From Gammaproteobacteria bacterium (GTDB lineage: Bacteria; Pseudomonadota; Gammaproteobacteria; UWMA-0217): a stretch of DNA of 64,000 nucleotides. The stretch lies in NCBI GenBank assembly GCA_026981985.1, contig JALSHZ010000031.1:8911-72910 (forward strand), written 5' to 3'. Shown here piece after piece: positions 3,771 to 46,027 of the stretch. The notes beneath the pieces are model-generated. The model saw only the letters and a list, made by a program, of their open reading frames with translations, ran no database searches and was not told the origin of the DNA. A program made the position numbers and the translations under genes. Each line of letters opens with the position of its first letter. Position 1 is the stretch's first letter.

Positions 3771-4628
3771 TCAAACCGCCTGCGGCGGTAGCTCCCTGAA
3801 GCCACGTTTGCGTCGTAGCCGGGCGGCCAGCCATGGCTGATGCGAGAACAGCACTTCCGTTTCGATACTGCCGTCGCGGTGCAGCACCAGTCGGCGATAG
3901 GCTGGTGTCTGCGCGGTAAAGCTGAGGTGTTCCGATTCTGGCAGAAACTGTAGGCAGGTGGATGGCGTGCCGAGTACCCTGATGTGCCCATGCTGGCGGT
4001 CGAGCTGCTGGTGGATGTGTCCACAGACAATGGTCTTCAGCTGCGGCACGGTGCCGAGTTGCGCCAGCGCCGCATCGGCGCCAATCATGCCGTGATGTGT
4101 ATCGAGCCATTCACTGCCAACCGGTAGTGGGTGGTGGTGAATGAACAGCGCAGCGTGATGTTGTGGAAACTTCTCTACCATTGCCTCGATCCAGCCCAGT
4201 TGGATCGTGGAAATCTCCCCCTGATCGACCCCCCGTCTGGAAGTGTCGAGAAACAGCAGTAACCAATCCTTTTTGATGATGAATCGCGGCATCGAGACTA
4301 CTTCGCCATCCAGCGCGGCGCTGAGCTGTTGTCTGTCGTCGTGGTTACCGGGCAGGCAGTAGACTGGCGAACCTTCGTCCTGCAGTAACCGGACGAACCG
4401 CCGGTAAGCCTCTGCCTCTCCCTTCTGGGCGATATCGCCCGTGACCACCAGTGCGTCGAAACAGGGCTCATTCACCTGGATATCGTCGAGCACGGTGGAA
4501 AGCGTTTCCGTGGTGTCGAGATCATCGCAATGCGGGCACCAGCCCAACCCTTCTTCAGGGTGTGCCTGCAAATGCAGATCGGTGATCTGGATGATCCGAA
4601 GAGGCTCCGCTTCTTCAATGATTGGCAT
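3771..4628 (-). CDS. cpdA: 3',5'-cyclic-nucleotide phosphodiesterase CpdA (metallophosphoesterase)
   Basis: 285 aa. Calcineurin-like motifs: ITDLH, GDIAQKG, GNHD, GHIH. Confidence 0.85.
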   Translation of the reverse strand: MPIIEEAEPLRIIQITDLHLQAHPEEGLGWCPHCDDLDTTETLSTVLDDIQVNEPCFDALVVTGDIAQKGEAEAYRRFVRLLQDEGSPVYCLPGNHDDRQQLSAALDGEVVSMPRFIIKKDWLLLFLDTSRRGVDQGEISTIQLGWIEAMVEKFPQHHAALFIHHHPLPVGSEWLDTHHGMIGADAALAQLGTVPQLKTIVCGHIHQQLDRQHGHIRVLGTPSTCLQFLPESEHLSFTAQTPAYRRLVLHRDGSIETEVLFSHQPWLAARLRRKRGFRELPPQAV

Positions 4629-4967
4629 CGGTTACTCCCTAGCTGGACAACAAGCGTGATGACGATAGCAGAAACATGTGAAGCTTTAATGACGAGGTTC
4701 TCAAGATGAATGAAAGCACCCGGCAGGCGTTCATGAGGTGGGGGCGGGAAGAATTCCCAGGTAGAAACCATGGGCAACAAGGGCCGGTTTCATCACCGGA
4801 ATAAACCCATGTTTATAAAGGGTTCTATCTTCGTTGCTATTTTCGAAGCTGATGGGCCAAGGCCATCTGACTGTAAGGATTGTTGCACTGTGTATGGTCC
4901 ATGGATGTTGCAATCAGTGTCTGCTGTTGTGCCCGTTTTCCGCCAATAAGGAACGTTCGACCGATTT

Positions 4968-7804: not shown

Positions 7805-8185
7805 AACTCAAGTTTCGGAGTTCAGATTTGCCCATCAGCCAGTTCCCCGGGAAAGGTGGAGGCTGGAATGTAGCTCGGTCGCGGAGGAGCCACCAAAAGC
7901 CTCCCTTTCGCAAAGGGAGGTTTGGAGGGATTGGTGCTGCGGAGTTTTGGTCTGGTGGGGTGGTATAAATCCCCCTCAATCCCCCTTTGGCAAAGGGGGA
8001 AGTTGTCAGAGGTGGCAGCCCTGTTTTCAGGGACAGCGCCGGTCTTGAGCGCGTGGCCACTGATTCATCGATTCTGATATGGTGACCCAGGAATCAACAA
8101 TACCACCTATTGCAACGCATTATTTGTTTTGCATCAACGGGTTGCTCACTGATTTAGATGCGACATGAACTCCGAAACTTGAGTT
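7805..8185 (+). mobile_element. MITE-like element, family 2 (381 bp)
   Basis: 20-bp terminal inverted repeats aactcaagtttcggagttca / tgaactccgaaacttgagtt. Internal perfect palindromes cctccctttcgcaaagggagg and ccccctttggcaaaggggg. No ORF. Confidence 0.7.
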
Positions 8186-8414: not shown

Positions 8415-8566
8415 GTAACTATTCAGTTGGCAGAAAAATGGAGCCGTAACTGCTCAGATTGCCGCTGAAACGCGTCAGATCAAGGCGGGAAATGTGAGTT
8501 TACAGGTGTAAATGACCATTTCCCAACGCAGAGATGGCGCGTTTCAGTGGTGAGCTGAGTAGTTAC
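8415..8566 (+). mobile_element. MITE family 1, short form (152 bp)
   Basis: TIR gtaactattcag / ctgagtagttac. 8-bp TSD gttctcta at 8407-8414 and 8567-8574. Confidence 0.85.
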
Positions 8567-17006: not shown

Positions 17007-17256
17007 GTAACTACTCAGCTCACGACTGAAACGCGCCATCTCTGCGTCGCCTACAAGGATGTAGGTGAGGGGCGTGAGCAGGAGGCGGAAGCTTTGGGAA
17101 ATGGTCATTTACCCGTGGTAGAGAATTGCTCCATGCATTTTCTACACTTCCCACTTCCATGTGGGTCGTAAACTCACATTTCCCGCCTTGATCTGACGCG
17201 TTTCAGCGGCAATCTGAGCAGTTACGGTTCTATTTTTCTACCTTCTGAATAGTTAC
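17007..17256 (-). mobile_element. MITE family 1, long form (250 bp), inverted orientation
   Basis: TIR gtaactactcag / ctgaatagttac. 8-bp TSD cacgctag at 16999-17006 and 17257-17264. Inserted 6 bp after the dsrC-like stop. Confidence 0.85.
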
Positions 17257-20037: not shown

Positions 20038-20150
20038 GCCTCCCTTTCGCAAAGGGAGGTTTGGAGGGATTGTTACCGCGGTGTTTTGGTGTGGCGCGGT
20101 GGTTCAAATCCCCCTCCATCCCCATTGGGGAAAGGAGGCGTCCTGGGGCA
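20038..20150. repeat. Solo internal fragment of MITE family 2 (palindrome-rich) between convergent genes
   Basis: cctccctttcgcaaagggaggtttggagggatt...ggttcaaatccccctccatcccc matches the interior of the 7805 element. No TIRs. Confidence 0.6.
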
Positions 20151-24333: not shown

Positions 24334-25992
24334 TTGGGCATTGAGATGATGATACGTCTGCTGGTGATTTTCCTCTTGCTGGGGCTTTCTGGCTGCGCGC
24401 ATTTTCGCGTCAACGAGCCATTGCCTCAGTATATTGTGCGTGATGAACCGGTGCGGCCCGATCGTGCCGATGACCTGCTCGTGGTGCTGTCGTTTTCCGG
24501 TGGCGGCAGTCGGGCGTCGGCGCTTTCTTATGGTGTGTTGCAAGCGCTGGCGGCGTCGCGTATCGAATGGAATGGTCGTCAACGACGTTTGCTTGATGAA
24601 GTCGATATTGTCTTCGGCGTCTCCGGTGGCAGTTTCACCGCCGCCTATTTCGCGCTGTTTGGCGACCGCATCTTCACAGAATTCGAGCCGGGTTTTTTGC
24701 GCCGCGATGTTGATGGCACCCTGGTCAAGCGGCTGTTCAATCCCATCAACTGGTTCCGCCTGGCAACGCCGTATTTCAATCGCAGTGAAATGGCCGAAGC
24801 CTACTATGATGAGATTCTTGTAACTATTCAGCATTCGCTGAAGTAGAACCGTAACTGCTCAGATTGCCGCTGGAATGCGTCAGATCAAGGCGGGAAATGT
24901 GAGTTTACGACCCACAGGGAAGTGGGGAGTGCAGGCAATGCATGGAGCAATTGCCTGCCGAGTGTAAATGATCATTTCCCAAAGCTTCCGCATCCTGCTC
25001 ACGCCCCTCACCTACATCCATGTAGGCGACACAGAGATGGCGCATTCCAGTGGTGAGCTGAGTAGTTACAGATTCTTTTTCATGGCGCGACCTTTGGTGA
25101 TATCGACCCGCGGCGGGCGCCAGCGCTGCTGGTCAATGCGACCGATGTAACGCTGGGCGATGGGTTCAGCTTTGACCAGACCCATTTCGACCTGATTTGT
25201 TCACGGCTCGATACCTACCCGGTGTCACGTGCTGTCACTGCATCATCCGCGGTGCCCGGTATTTTCTCCGCCATTACCATCGCCAACTATGCGGGCAGTT
25301 GTGGCTACGAGGTGCCGAGCTGGGTGCGGGATGTCTTGAAAGCGCCGAGTCGTGCCGATGGCCGGCTCTATCTGGCGCGAAAGATTGCAGCCTACGCCGA
25401 TCGGGAAAAACGCCCCTATATCCATCTGCTCGATGGTGGCCTGGCCGACAACCTGGGACTCCGTGCGTTGATCGATCGAGTGAAGCTGCATCACCGTACG
25501 CCGGATGGCTCGGTGCGTCATGTACTGCTGAATAGTGGTCTGAAAAAAATTCTGGTGGTTATCGTCAATGCCGCAGCGGCACCCGATACCCGGCTGAATC
25601 TGCTTGACTATCCGCCATCCATTGCTACCACGGTAGATATTGCCACCACCGTGCAGGTCAATCGCTACAACAATGAAACATTGCGTGTGTTTCGGGAAAA
25701 TCTCGAAGAGTGGCAGCAGTCGATCCGCCTGCTGCGATGCGGTGGCGAACATTGTGACGAGGAACCGGAGTTCTTTCTGGTGGATGCCAGTCTGATGCGC
25801 ATCGACGATCAGGCAGAGCGCAACTATCTCCAGACACTGCCGACCTCGTTTTCGCTGGACGATCAGGCGATCGATCGTTTGATTGCCGCGGGGCGACTGT
25901 TGCTACAGGAGTCCAGCGAGATGCAGCGTTTCCTGTCGGGGGTTCGGCCTGCTGCGATGGCTGCACAGGAATCAGCGCCGGCTGTACGGTGA
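24334..25992 (+). pseudogene. Patatin-like phospholipase gene interrupted by a MITE
   Basis: N-terminal fragment with GGGSRA and GVSGGS. C-terminal fragment with the DGGLADNLG catalytic Asp. Removing the element plus one TSD restores a continuous frame ...YYDEIL|FHGATFGDIDPRRAPALLVNATD.... The element carries an in-frame TAG at 24844-24846. Confidence 0.85.
24820..25069 (+). mobile_element. MITE family 1, long form (250 bp), inserted into the patatin gene
   Basis: TIR gtaactattcag / ctgagtagttac. 8-bp TSD agattctt at 24812-24819 and 25070-25077. The insertion is 258 bp, a multiple of 3. Confidence 0.9.
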
Positions 25993-26012: not shown

Positions 26013-26235
26013 AACTCAAGTTTCGGAGTTCAGATTTGCACATCAGCCAGTTTTCCCCCCTTTCGCAAAGGGGGGTAGGGGGGATTGGAACGTCCATGGG
26101 TTCGCAGCAAGTCCCTGAAAATCCCCCTCAATCCCCCTTTGCGAAAGGGGGAAGCTGTCAGGCGCGGTAGTCGTGTTGTTATGGATAGCGCTGGCCTCAA
26201 CCGTGATGAACTCCAAAACTTGATATTGAAACAAC
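26013..26235 (+). mobile_element. MITE-like element, family 2 (about 223 bp, diverged right end)
   Basis: Left TIR aactcaagtttcggagttca. Right end tgaactccaaaacttgat. Internal ccctttcgcaaagggggg palindromes. Confidence 0.65.
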
Positions 26236-26253: not shown

Positions 26254-29200
26254 TTAGCCGCCGCTCACGCCGTTTGCGATTTCTGTCAGCGCTTGCCACA
26301 TCTCGGGATTATCGATTTTCAACTGCTGTAGCGCAGGTGTGTCGAGCAGTGCATCAATTTTTTCCGACAGTGATTCCGGCTCATGCTGAAGTGCTTTGGC
26401 TTGCCATGCTTCGAAGAGCAGGGCGAGGCGCGTGTGTCGGCTGATGATTGCGGCAGGTTGCCAGCTTTGTTCCTTGAAAGCTTGCAGCGTTTTGTTGCAC
26501 TGCTTGCGCAGGCGCTGAGCAGATTTGCTGTCGACATATTGTGGGTGACTAAGGCCCAGGCTGAGATAGTTGATCAGTGTGCGATAGATGACGGGGCCGA
26601 TGGGGTCATCCGTTTCCTCTGCCCACGCCGTGGCGGCTTGCAGTGATTGATCCATTGCCGCAGCCATTTGTGCATACTGCCCCGCTGCCTCGTGACTGAC
26701 GGCAATATGCTGGTAATCCTTGGCGAGCAGGGAAAGGCGTGTGGACTCTTTCCAGGCGAGTGTTTCACTTTGCCCGGCGAGGCTTTGCAGTAGCTGCGTT
26801 CGCTGTGCGCGGTAGTGGATGCGATCGCCGGGGGTCGTGCTGAGGGTGGCGAGAAATCCCGAGGCGAGCAGTTTGAAGCGCGTCGGTGTAAAAGGAATGA
26901 GGCGGTTGTGATCGGCGGGCAGGGGTTTGAGTTTGTTTGCGATGGCCAACACGGCTTCGAATTGTTGTTTGGCGGTTTCCCGTATTCCGATTTTCATCAA
27001 GGCATAGCCGTAGCCGAGCAAAGCCTTGGCGCGATTTTCGTCGCCAAGCTGCGCCGTGGTGAGCAGTTTTCCCCAGGACTGTATGGCTTGCGGATAGTCT
27101 TCCGCCTGTAACGCATAAAATGCATATTTTTCCAGGAAAGGGGTACGGTCGAGCTGGCTGCTGGTGGTTGCCAGGCTGAGTGCCTTGGCCGCTTGTTGTT
27201 GTGCCTCTTGCGGTTGGTTGTTTGCAAAAAGCGCGCGAGCAAAAGCCAGTCGGGTGCGGGCTTCATCTTCGCCGTTAGGAAAGGGTAGTGCCAACCGCCG
27301 GGCGAAAAAATCGACTGCCAGCGCCTGGTTGCGCACCTCACTATGCAGCCAGGCAAGGTTTTCCCATACCGATGCGGTGATGCGGCTGTTGTCCCGGCCC
27401 AGATCCAGCGCCATGATGTAGTGATAATGGGCTTTTTGAAAGGCGCGCTTGTCGTAGCGGTAGCCGTGCTTTGAAAGCCGTAGCAGTTGGTGGTGGATAT
27501 ATCCCATCAGCAGGTCGCGTACCGCAGGACTCAGACCACGATTGTTCATGGGTTCCAACAGTGCAAGCGCCTTTTTCAGCGTTGTTTTCATCGCCTCCGG
27601 ACGGCTGCTATCAGCATCCAGAATCAGTTTTAGCGCCTCGGCGTAGTTCGCGTGTTGACCCAGCAGGTTCTGCTTTTTCAGGATGGCATAGGAACGTTCG
27701 AGGTTTTCGCGTTTATCGAGGCTGGGGCTTAGGCCAAGCGTGATGAACTGGTAGTGCGCTTCGAGGTCGTTGGTTTGGCGGATGGCGCTGTAGAAAACAG
27801 CATAGGCTTTGGCGGCGTTGCCTGCTGCGAGCATGCCATAGGCCTTGTCCATTGTAATGATGGCGTACTGTTCGGCGACATTGGCAAATTCCATCTCGGA
27901 AATGTTCGTGGTCAGCAGCCAATGGCGTGACAGCAATTCCATATATTGAAACTGCTCCGCTGCGCCCAGGTTCTGAATGGCGCGGACATGCATTGCCTTG
28001 CGCAGCAGCAGATCATCACGGTTATTTTTCAGTAGCGTGTTCAGTGCTTGAAAGGCAGTATTTCTGCTCGCCTGATCGCTACTCAATACCAGCCGCAATG
28101 TCTGAATTTCGCTGCGGAACAATTGGGCAATTTCATTATGGTGGATATTGTCGAGTTGTCGTTCGATGGTATCGATGCGAGTGCTGATGTTTTTTTCGGT
28201 TCGGCTCAACAATTTCAGGTAGTTGAATCCGTAGTAGATCCTGGCTTCGGCTGGCAAGCTGGCTGAGTCGAACATCAGTGGGTAGATGCCCAGCAGTTTT
28301 TTGGGGTGCTGCGTCAGCAATTGTCGGTATAGCTCGAAGGCGATGACCCGTTCCAGCGGCAGTGCAGAAGCACGGCTGAGGTCGTAACGCTGCAAGCGTT
28401 GAAGTGCCTGCGGTTCGTCTTCCAGTTCAAAATCGAACCAGGCGTCGATCAACGTCGTCAGTGCTGCTGGCAGCTTGCTCGCGTGAATGTGTTGACGGGC
28501 TTTGTCGACGATACGCCGAAATCGCGCAGTGACGATGCCAACCGGCACTTTCTGTTTTGATGCACGCACCAGAAACAGCATATCGAGCGCCTCGTAGAAA
28601 TGCGCCGTCGCCTCATCGTTCTGTTGCCGATACAGCTGTTGCAACTGTTTCACGTAATAGCGTGCGGCGGTCAGTTCACCAATTTCCAGGTGGTTGCTCA
28701 GCAGGCGTTCCAGCATTTCGGTGTCGTTGCGGCCGAACCGGTAGCGCAGGGAATTGAGGAGCAGCAGTCGGGTTTCATGACTGCGGGCGCTGCGGTGCGC
28801 TTCGAGGAGCCGTTGCTGATCCCACTGTGGTGGCACGCTACCGGTCAGTGGCAGCCTGTAGATATCCAGCGAGCCTTCGAAAGCGCAGGTGAGATAGAGG
28901 TATCGTTTGCTCAGGTCTGGAAACTTGCAATTGCTCGAGACGGATGTGAGTTGCTCTGGCAGTAGTGGTTTTGTGCTGTGAAGCCACGTTGCAAACGGAA
29001 TGCGAAATGCCACGCTGTTATCGCTGCCGTCGATGACCTGATCGCCATTGGTGTCGTTCAGATATTGGTTGAAATAGAGATACTCAGCATCGCTTGTCAC
29101 TGTGGCGATCCCCGTGATGCCGGGAAGGTCGAATTTCGTCGGGGTGAGCATTTTCTGCTGCTGCCGATCCCAGGCCTGGAGGCGTACGACGCCGTCTGGC

Positions 29201-29775
29201 AATGCCTCGGTCAGCAGAATATAGCGCCCATCGGGGGTGGCAGCAGGCGCAGAGATCAGCCCATGATAGAGCGTGGTGGCCGTCCCGGTTGCAAGATCAT
29301 GCAACACCAGATTCCAGTCGATCTGCGCTGTATCACGGCTCAGATACCCAAGCAGATGATCATTGACCCAGAACGGCGATTTATCCAGGGTGGCGTTCGT
29401 GGTGATGCATTTCAGTGCCTTGTTTGCCAGCGTAAAAAGGCAGACATCGCCTTGTGCATCATTGCCGAAATAGGTGAAGGCGAGGGTGGTGCCGGCAGGG
29501 TTCAGGGCGGGCTCTTTGGCATCGCCGATCTTGCCGATCAGCAGAGTTGTTTCGTTGCGCTGCAAATCCTGTTGCAGAATATTCGGAATCTGGTTTTGAC
29601 TGTGGGTGAAATAAATCCGTTGGTCGTCATCGCCGATGCTGGCTTCGAAATTATCCCAGGGCCCAACCGTCAGTTTTTCCAGTGGCACGAGCCGGTTTTC
29701 CTGCCAATTCGTTTCAGCGGCTAAGGCAGTGGAAAAAAAGCAAAAGGCGATCAGGACACATATTCTCAGTAACAT
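26254..29775 (-). CDS. Large periplasmic protein: N-terminal TolB-like beta-propeller plus long TPR array
   Basis: 1173 aa. Signal peptide. WD40/TolB-like repeats in the first ~300 aa, then many TPR-like helical repeats. Start ATG overlaps the ynbE stop (TAATG). Confidence 0.6.
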   Translation of the reverse strand: MLLRICVLIAFCFFSTALAAETNWQENRLVPLEKLTVGPWDNFEASIGDDDQRIYFTHSQNQIPNILQQDLQRNETTLLIGKIGDAKEPALNPAGTTLAFTYFGNDAQGDVCLFTLANKALKCITTNATLDKSPFWVNDHLLGYLSRDTAQIDWNLVLHDLATGTATTLYHGLISAPAATPDGRYILLTEALPDGVVRLQAWDRQQQKMLTPTKFDLPGITGIATVTSDAEYLYFNQYLNDTNGDQVIDGSDNSVAFRIPFATWLHSTKPLLPEQLTSVSSNCKFPDLSKRYLYLTCAFEGSLDIYRLPLTGSVPPQWDQQRLLEAHRSARSHETRLLLLNSLRYRFGRNDTEMLERLLSNHLEIGELTAARYYVKQLQQLYRQQNDEATAHFYEALDMLFLVRASKQKVPVGIVTARFRRIVDKARQHIHASKLPAALTTLIDAWFDFELEDEPQALQRLQRYDLSRASALPLERVIAFELYRQLLTQHPKKLLGIYPLMFDSASLPAEARIYYGFNYLKLLSRTEKNISTRIDTIERQLDNIHHNEIAQLFRSEIQTLRLVLSSDQASRNTAFQALNTLLKNNRDDLLLRKAMHVRAIQNLGAAEQFQYMELLSRHWLLTTNISEMEFANVAEQYAIITMDKAYGMLAAGNAAKAYAVFYSAIRQTNDLEAHYQFITLGLSPSLDKRENLERSYAILKKQNLLGQHANYAEALKLILDADSSRPEAMKTTLKKALALLEPMNNRGLSPAVRDLLMGYIHHQLLRLSKHGYRYDKRAFQKAHYHYIMALDLGRDNSRITASVWENLAWLHSEVRNQALAVDFFARRLALPFPNGEDEARTRLAFARALFANNQPQEAQQQAAKALSLATTSSQLDRTPFLEKYAFYALQAEDYPQAIQSWGKLLTTAQLGDENRAKALLGYGYALMKIGIRETAKQQFEAVLAIANKLKPLPADHNRLIPFTPTRFKLLASGFLATLSTTPGDRIHYRAQRTQLLQSLAGQSETLAWKESTRLSLLAKDYQHIAVSHEAAGQYAQMAAAMDQSLQAATAWAEETDDPIGPVIYRTLINYLSLGLSHPQYVDSKSAQRLRKQCNKTLQAFKEQSWQPAAIISRHTRLALLFEAWQAKALQHEPESLSEKIDALLDTPALQQLKIDNPEMWQALTEIANGVSGG

Positions 29776-45875: not shown

Positions 45876-46027
45876 GTGACTATTCAGTAGGCAGAAAAAT
45901 AGAACCGTAACTGCTCAGATTGCCGCTGAAACGCGTCAGATCAAGGCGGGGAATGTGAGTTTACATGTGTAAATGACCATTTCCCAACGCAGAGATGACG
46001 CGTTTCAGTGGTGAGCTGGGCAGTTAC
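45876..46027 (+). mobile_element. MITE family 1, short form (152 bp, slightly diverged TIR gtgactattcag)
   Basis: Same internal sequence as 8415-8566. No clean TSD. Confidence 0.75.

Follow-up and report, generated by a model that had tools for sequence, protein, structure and literature searches.

The stretch of DNA analysed here, referred to as the window over its whole length, comprises 64,000 nucleotides of contig JALSHZ010000031.1 from the assembly GCA_026981985.1 of a Gammaproteobacteria bacterium. Between positions 24334 and 25992, it contains a gene for a patatin-like phospholipase whose coding sequence is interrupted by a miniature inverted-repeat transposable element (MITE), flanked on both sides by an 8-bp target-site duplication (TSD). 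We consider it very probable that a MITE with ends of the ISBst12 group (IS66 family) inserted into the coding sequence of this lipoprotein phospholipase and turned the gene into a pseudogene. The positions of the gene parts, of the element and of its further copies in the window are compiled in Table 1.

Removal of the element together with one copy of the TSD restores an open reading frame (ORF) of 462 aa from the ATG at 24346, or of 466 aa from the in-frame TTG at 24334 upstream of it. The ATG is backed as the start by the N-terminus of the orthologue P0001 (MMIRLL...), and a 166-aa gene call in the European Nucleotide Archive (ENA) has the same start. An earlier interpretation made from the letters of the DNA (the sequence-only reading) had also arrived at an intact patatin after excision, but at a length of ~550 aa, which is the length with the element in. 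The restored protein scores 68.6 bits against the Pfam family Patatin (PF01734; cutoff 27.7 bits) over residues 48-289, and the break after codon 158 falls within this domain. Its N-terminus is a lipoprotein signal (...LLGLSGC) with the lipobox LSGC, of which Cys17 is invariant among the homologues. The GGGSR oxyanion motif, read from the sequence, is encoded at 24499-24513 and the GVSGG nucleophile elbow at 24616-24630, with the codon of Ser93 at 24622-24624; the DGG motif with Asp277 of the catalytic dyad follows at 25432-25440 in the 3' part of the gene. Bacterial patatin-like phospholipases (PF01734; 'NTE family protein' in the JGI label) likewise have the GGGxR, GxSxG and DGG motifs with a Ser-Asp dyad, and the restored protein shares its length and the N-terminal lipobox Cys with hundreds of gammaproteobacterial homologues. 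Unlike other members of PF01734, the patatin of the window is interrupted after codon 158 and carries two substitutions beside the elbow.

These substitutions, I89V and S90F, are encoded directly before the GVSGG elbow (codons 89-90, window 24610-24615) and are the only two residues to deviate where 14 homologues show no variation. An early relaxation after the inactivation of the gene could account for them, or they could be older than the insertion.

Structure of the inserted element

The MITE starts with GTAACTATTCAGC (24820-24832) and finishes with GCTGAGTAGTTAC, its ends being of the type GTAACTRCTCAG.... The terminal motif is present twice at the left end, as an outer copy GTAACTATTCAG and an inner copy GTAACTGCTCAG. 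The outer termini of 13-14 nt are 93% complementary to each other, and a 32-nt inverted repeat is formed by 24851-24882, which pairs with the right end at 25038-25069 (81% complementary). All six frames of the element contain stops, and it is non-coding. As single-stranded DNA, it folds as one long hairpin with a free energy of -59.2 kcal/mol (z = -6.85); a comparison with Rfam gave no match. The element thus has the properties of a MITE: it is short and non-coding, has terminal inverted repeats (TIRs) and a TSD of fixed length with a corresponding empty site, and occurs in dispersed copies. The coordinates of a 250-bp MITE with a perfect 8-bp TSD, as proposed in the sequence-only reading, are borne out by the direct repeat and by the copies of the family.

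The 250-bp form contains a 57-nt module (window 24980-25036, element positions 161-217) that is found only in this form and includes the hairpin CCTACATCCATGTAGG. This module shares ~90% identity with a section of another repeat, which occurs in Pseudoalteromonas replicons (L104 3501-3557, L105 3501-3544); there, elements of the ISAs1 and IS4 families are inserted in or beside it. The similarity may be a hint that unrelated repeat families of different bacterial orders exchange a small module of structured DNA.

Insertion site in orthologues and in other datasets

A homologue search of a large protein collection (~15 billion proteins, E <= 1e-10) yielded 6,842 homologues of the restored protein. 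Among the matches listed (120 of the 6,842), all are single chains of 410-520 aa and none is split at the junction. An alignment with 14 homologues is gapless across the junction (...AEAYYDEIL|FHGATFGDID...), and both L158 and F159 are invariant. At the nucleotide level, the empty site was seen in the closest orthologue, on the Logan contig L001 (90% aa and ~80% nt identity): positions 898-1372 of this contig correspond to window 24345-24819 and positions 1365-2275 to window 25070-25983, and the 8-nt overlap of the two alignments is the target in a single copy, GAGATCCTT. The target is likewise single in L002 (81% aa identity). Excision in silico gives the junction ...TACTATGATGAGATTCTTTTTCATGGCGCG... 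for the window allele; the empty junction reads GATGAGATTCTTTTTCATGG. Since the target is single in the orthologues and the alignment is continuous, a native two-gene arrangement is ruled out. Relatives split at the same point without a MITE, which the sequence-only reading had named as the mark of such an arrangement, were not encountered: the 14 aligned homologues are continuous, and the target is single in L001 and L002.

The occupied allele was recovered from two further datasets. Contigs from the ENA assembly ERZ27262642 and from the Sequence Read Archive run SRR7968108 match the window with 100% identity. In ERZ27262642, one contig reaches window position 24960 from the left and another one reaches 24930 from the right; in SRR7968108, the left contig stops at 24849. 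As the MITE is entered by contigs of both datasets, the insertion is not an assembly artefact, and all three sources carry the occupied allele. Both short-read assemblies end inside the element, and the MITE family breaks contigs in metagenome assemblies of this lineage. An empty allele of the same strain was searched for with the exact 36-mer of the empty site, which had 0 matches in the JGI metagenome contigs, a result that is uninformative if the strain is unsampled there. No intact protein with more than 90% identity was present in the collection of ~15 billion proteins, the best cluster being at ~90%.

Consequences for the protein

Element and second TSD copy together add 258 bp, i.e. 86 codons, and the frame is kept, as the sequence-only reading had noted. 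The preservation of the frame has no consequence because the MITE contains three in-frame stops, at 24844 (TAG), 25054 (TGA) and 25063 (TAG), the first of which was the single stop recognised before. Translation from the ATG ends at this first TAG and gives a product of 166 aa, made up of 158 native residues and the tail VTIQHSLK. This product retains the oxyanion motif and Ser93 but lacks Asp277 of the dyad. The earlier observation that GGGxR and GxSxG lie on the N-terminal side and DGG on the C-terminal side agrees with the motif positions: all three motifs are present, but not on one polypeptide, with the insertion and its three stops in between. Enzymes of the patatin type require the Ser and the Asp in one fold. 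Given that Ser93 and Asp277 lie on opposite sides of the MITE, we infer a loss of activity. After the MITE, the frame has no ATG, GTG or TTG until the GTG at 25222, no Shine-Dalgarno sequence is present in the 15 nt before it (CTCGATACCTACCCG), and scans of the region revealed no promoter-like site and no relevant terminator. In the absence of an early start and of a Shine-Dalgarno sequence, the C-terminal part is not credible as a separate gene.

It could be argued that the two parts represent a genuine split gene, whose halves are made separately and joined, or that the N-terminal fragment is functional by itself. Both halves are indeed open and undecayed, 120 of the 122 invariant residues are kept, and the ratio of nonsynonymous to synonymous substitutions (dN/dS) is 0.04 in each half, although this value stems mostly from the time before the insertion. 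Nevertheless, we regard a functional split gene as extremely unlikely: the break lies inside the Patatin domain and distributes the Ser and the Asp of the dyad to different fragments, downstream translation would have to begin no earlier than at the GTG at 25222, which lacks a Shine-Dalgarno sequence ahead of it, no promoter-like site was found in the region, and none of the 120 homologues listed is split there. Judged from its sequence, the patatin gene is almost certainly dead and would constitute one pseudogene spanning 24346-25992. For annotation, this means that the region should be entered as a single patatin pseudogene with a mobile element, and not as two genes. The gene downstream (26254-29775, minus strand) is convergent, and polar effects of the insertion are therefore not expected.

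Distribution and target preference of the MITE family

Besides the copy in the patatin gene, the window holds three other copies of the element (Table 1). Perfect 8-bp TSDs, differing in sequence, are found at three of the four copies; the exception, at 45876-46027, may be old or may have been rearranged after its insertion. A degenerate inverted-repeat pattern had 8 matches in the window compared to 0 in shuffled sequence, and it retrieved at least 93 stretches from a collection of species-representative genomes. These stretches were found in metagenome-assembled genomes (MAGs) of Sedimenticola, in 'uncultured Thiotrichales' MAGs (SRP163575) and in one 'Gammaproteobacteria bacterium' MAG, a distribution that places the window in or near Sedimenticola. 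The pattern had 0 matches in viral contigs. A literature search for a MITE of Sedimenticola returned nothing relevant, and the family appears to be previously undescribed.

Table 1 Features of the interrupted patatin gene and copies of the MITE in the window.
Feature	Position	Strand	Remarks
Patatin-like phospholipase gene, 5' part	24346..24819	+	codons 1-158; ORF list and Pfam PF01734
Left TSD copy	24812..24819	.	AGATTCTT
MITE, 250 bp	24820..25069	+	
Right TSD copy	25070..25077	.	AGATTCTT
Patatin gene, 3' part	25078..25992	+	codons 159-462 and stop
Second full-length copy, 250 bp	17007..17256	-	intergenic; 88.4% identical to patatin copy; perfect TSD CTAGCGTG (element orientation)
Deletion-form copy, 152 bp	8415..8566	+	intergenic; perfect TSD GTTCTCTA
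Deletion-form copy, 152 bp	45876..46027	+	slightly degraded termini (GTGACT..., ...GGGCAGTTAC); no recognisable TSD

In the loci fetched for comparison, 41 of the 43 complete copies have a length of 152 bp, one has 151 bp and one 250 bp. When the four copies of the window are included, 44 complete copies were available for the analysis of the insertion sites, of which 28 have a perfect 8-bp TSD and four a TSD with one mismatch; several of the apparent failures are registration shifts of 1 bp. The perfect TSDs have a mean GC content of 44% compared to 57% for the window, and none of 2,000 random sets was as low. The target in the patatin gene, with 25% GC, is in line with this preference for AT-rich sites. 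The insertion into this gene is the only verified disruption of a coding sequence among the 44 copies. Eight other copies apparently lie in long open frames after excision, but no Pfam domain extends across any of these junctions and they were discarded as candidates.

Short non-coding elements of this kind are known from other bacteria, e.g. as Correia and RUP elements, and MITEAba12 of Acinetobacter reportedly inactivates genes. Like these three, the MITE of the window is short, non-coding, present in multiple copies, equipped with TIRs and a TSD, and able to form a hairpin; it is mostly intergenic, occasionally knocks out a gene and is presumably mobilised in trans. It differs from them in the parent family of insertion sequences (ISs) and in its host lineage, i.e. 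Sedimenticola and relatives.

Several variants were observed within the family. The copy in the patatin gene has the arms GGAATG / CATTCC (24872-24877 and 25043-25048), in place of GAAACG / CGTTTC in the other three copies of the window. As the changes on both sides keep the complementarity, they mark this copy as a separate sub-lineage; the same variant is present in a solo 34-nt terminus in L083/L106. Many loci of the MAG JALULB01 (e.g. L007, L009, L010 and L043) carry a diverged subfamily in which GTAACTACTCAGCGAGT...GGGTAACTGCTCAGATCGCCGCTGAAATGCG forms the left end and a hairpin, GGGCAATGCAGGAGCAATTGCC, lies in the interior. In one Sedimenticola MAG, this subfamily is so frequent that the fetched loci include dozens of copies of it, a sign of lineage-specific bursts. 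In L024, another locus from a Sedimenticola MAG, a copy of the family harbours a small element of a different kind (~4590-4880, minus strand), whose inverted ends, CTAGGAGTCTGTCGGGTTT ... AAACCCGACAGGCTCCTAG, are perfect. Together with an insertion in L089, this nested element indicates that the MITEs are themselves frequent targets of insertion.

Age of the insertion

The 1,386 nt of coding sequence on the two sides of the element contain no frameshift and no extra stop. Of the 122 positions without variation among the 14 homologues, the interrupted gene keeps 120 and so falls within the range of its intact close homologues, which lose 0-2 of them in a leave-one-out comparison. The dN/dS of 0.04, determined against L001 at a saturated dS of 1.3, is the same in both halves and does not discriminate because it mostly reflects evolution before the insertion. 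As a rough estimate, the complete lack of disabling events in ~1.4 kb suggests that less than ~1-2% of neutral divergence has accumulated since the insertion, if a share of ~15% disabling changes (nonsense or indel) among the neutral changes of a dead gene is assumed.

The perfect TSD and the lack of decay make a very recent event, as advocated by the sequence-only reading, plausible, but they do not prove it. Perfect TSDs are common to 28 of the 44 copies, including copies that are ~12% diverged from the one in the patatin gene, the nearest other full-length copy reaches just 88-89% identity and none above 89% is known, and both other datasets of the strain carry the occupied allele with no empty one found. 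Taken together, the insertion is likely recent on an evolutionary scale; the further claim that it is very recent, and that mobilisation is hence currently active, is weakly supported. A scenario in which the family is still mobile by means of an unsequenced ISBst12-type transposase, and in which the hit in the patatin gene is a knock-out of a surface lipoprotein phospholipase that is very young and may be reversible by precise excision, appears improbable to us. If true, the insertion would be a naturally occurring loss-of-function polymorphism, possibly of relevance to membrane or host interaction in a group to which symbionts belong.

Reversibility could also take the form of a switch: part of the population would regain the gene by precise excision between the 8-bp repeats, and the lipoprotein phospholipase would be phase-variable. 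A hairpin flanked by direct repeats favours slippage-mediated precise excision, and the very stable hairpin of the MITE (z = -6.85) is flanked in this way; in addition, excision of the MITE with one TSD copy gives a perfect ORF, and the gene shows no decay. Against such a switch, neither the ~15 billion proteins nor the JGI metagenome contigs contain an empty allele of the same strain, both other datasets show the occupied one, and the insertion, being the sole copy of 44 in a verified coding sequence, looks accidental. We judge a phase-variable gene to be very unlikely.

Candidate parent transposase

To our knowledge, only a small number of MITEs are linked to the ISBst12 group (IS66 family), a group for which transposition was reported only in 2026. 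The IS66 family was considered as the parent family on the basis of the GTAA termini and the 8-bp TSD of the MITE, as inverted repeats of IS66 begin with GTAAGCG and are flanked by 8-bp direct repeats (PMC11946415). ISDge4 of Deinococcus geothermalis belongs to the single-ORF ISBst12 group, has the TIRs GTGACTACTCAGCA / GTAACTGCTCAGCA and an 8-bp direct repeat, and was observed to transpose (PMC12898284); the terminus of the MITE is identical to these TIRs at 12/14 to 13/14 positions. A copy of the ISGka4 family on plasmid pHTA426 of Geobacillus kaustophilus is counted in the same group (PMC8024623). This IS has the ends GTAACTATTCAGCCC / GTATCTATTCAGCCC and is flanked on both sides by AACTCGTC, and its transposase matches DDE_Tnp_IS66 (PF03050) with 218 bits in addition to zf-IS66. 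Over its first 13 nt, this IS is identical to the outer terminus of the MITE, GTAACTATTCAGC.

The ends of these ISs (GTAACTATTCAGCCC for pHTA426, GTAACTGCTCAGCA / GTGACTACTCAGCA for ISDge4) resemble those of the MITE (GTAACTATTCAGC, GTAACTACTCAGC, GTAACTGCTCAGA), and both produce an 8-bp target duplication. In contrast, ISs of the ISBst12 group have a length of ~1.6 kb and encode a DDE_Tnp_IS66 transposase of 449-485 aa, whereas the MITE, with 250 bp (or 152 bp), encodes nothing; its left end with two terminal motifs and its inverted repeat of ~30 nt also set it apart. On the strength of its termini, we file the MITE as a putative derivative of the ISBst12 group (IS66 family). In the corresponding mechanism, an ISBst12-type DDE transposase acting in trans would have bound the GTAACT.. 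terminal repeats and cut the AT-rich target AGATTCTT, inside codons 156-158, with a stagger of 8 bp, and repair of the gaps would have doubled the 8-bp target. The mobilisation in trans by an IS66-family transposase is what we infer from these ends.

Other leads to a parent element were followed. A blastn search of a plasmid collection with the whole MITE did not reveal an IS sharing its termini and returned only the internal 57-nt module in the Pseudoalteromonas repeats. An isolated terminus in L083, followed via a neighbouring protein to L106, proved to be a 34-nt solo remnant beside a SulP-type permease with no parent IS, and the orphan termini in L024 and L089 belong to MITE copies with other small elements nested in them, again with no parent IS.

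A further candidate came from L029 (2514-2682) and L033 (1-137), two loci of one Sedimenticola MAG that lie on the same contigs as L100 and L101, and in which a MITE terminus is followed by sequence foreign to the MITE and by an apparent gene start; the contigs run out 140-170 nt beyond the terminus. This sequence matches a plasmid of Acidithiobacillus caldus with 87.5% and, more weakly, more than 500 enterobacterial plasmids, and the adjoining plasmid gene encodes an ISNCY-family transposase (NF033594, 465 bits). Relatives of this IS are present at L102 5001-6439 and L103 5079-6419; the copy on the A. caldus megaplasmid is frameshifted. Mobilisation of the MITE by an ISNCY-family IS, or by another family with 8-bp TSDs, instead of an ISBst12/IS66-type one would be suggested by the direct junction, in both loci, of the 40-nt MITE terminus with the ends of an ISNCY-type IS. 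The A. caldus relative, however, has 29-nt inverted repeats of its own (TGTTAGCCC...GGGTTGACA) and sub-terminal AATGTCC repeats, the MITE has neither ISNCY-type ends nor AATGTCC repeats, and the plasmid homology does not reach the GTAAC terminus but starts at TGT, ~40 nt further in. Most simply, copies of the MITE served as insertion sites for the ISNCY element, which has TGT...ACA ends of its own, and ISNCY was rejected as the parent. As the terminus of the MITE also matches the ends of the ISBst12 group over 12-13 nt, we hold a parent outside this group to be most improbable, and the ISBst12-type origin is preferred. The ISNCY element sits ~40 nt inside the right end of the MITE in both orientations, which suggests a site preference within the MITE.

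Some points weigh against the interpretation as an ISBst12-type MITE that inactivated the patatin gene. The functional loss is deduced from the separation of the dyad, and the link to the parent family is drawn from 12-13 nt of terminal identity and the length of the TSD. A tblastn search of the window and of 0.73 Mb of related loci with the pHTA426 transposase gave nothing below E = 1, so that the search for a cognate transposase proposed by the sequence-only reading came back empty within this sequence. Neither an autonomous ISBst12-type element with the ends of the MITE nor an IS66-family transposase was found in the window or in these loci, and a screen of the fetched loci for recurrent large ORFs yielded no transposase. 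Assemblies of MAGs usually lose multi-copy IS elements, and the lack of a transposase is thus an absence in a small and poor sample and no disproof. The age of the insertion is unconstrained on the old side, with dS being saturated and no copy above 89% identity at hand.

Apart from this, the case is one of ordinary transposon-mediated gene loss by a new element of a known type, and its main value lies in the annotation and in the tracing of ISBst12-type activity in this lineage. In particular, the ends of the MITE family, its 8-bp TSD and its preference for AT-rich targets offer a starting point from which the active transposase may be sought in genomes of Sedimenticola.

A second repeat family downstream of the patatin gene

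Right after the stop codon of the patatin gene, at window 26013-26197, lies a member of a second small repeat family, which is also represented at 7805-8045 and 20106-20138. It has a self-complementary core (26056-26151) with arms of the CCCCCTTTCGCAAAGGGGG type. In the orthologous locus L001, the spacer at this site measures just 45 bp, and a break in the Logan contig falls at 26117. The repeat at 26013-26197 is probably another MITE-like insertion.

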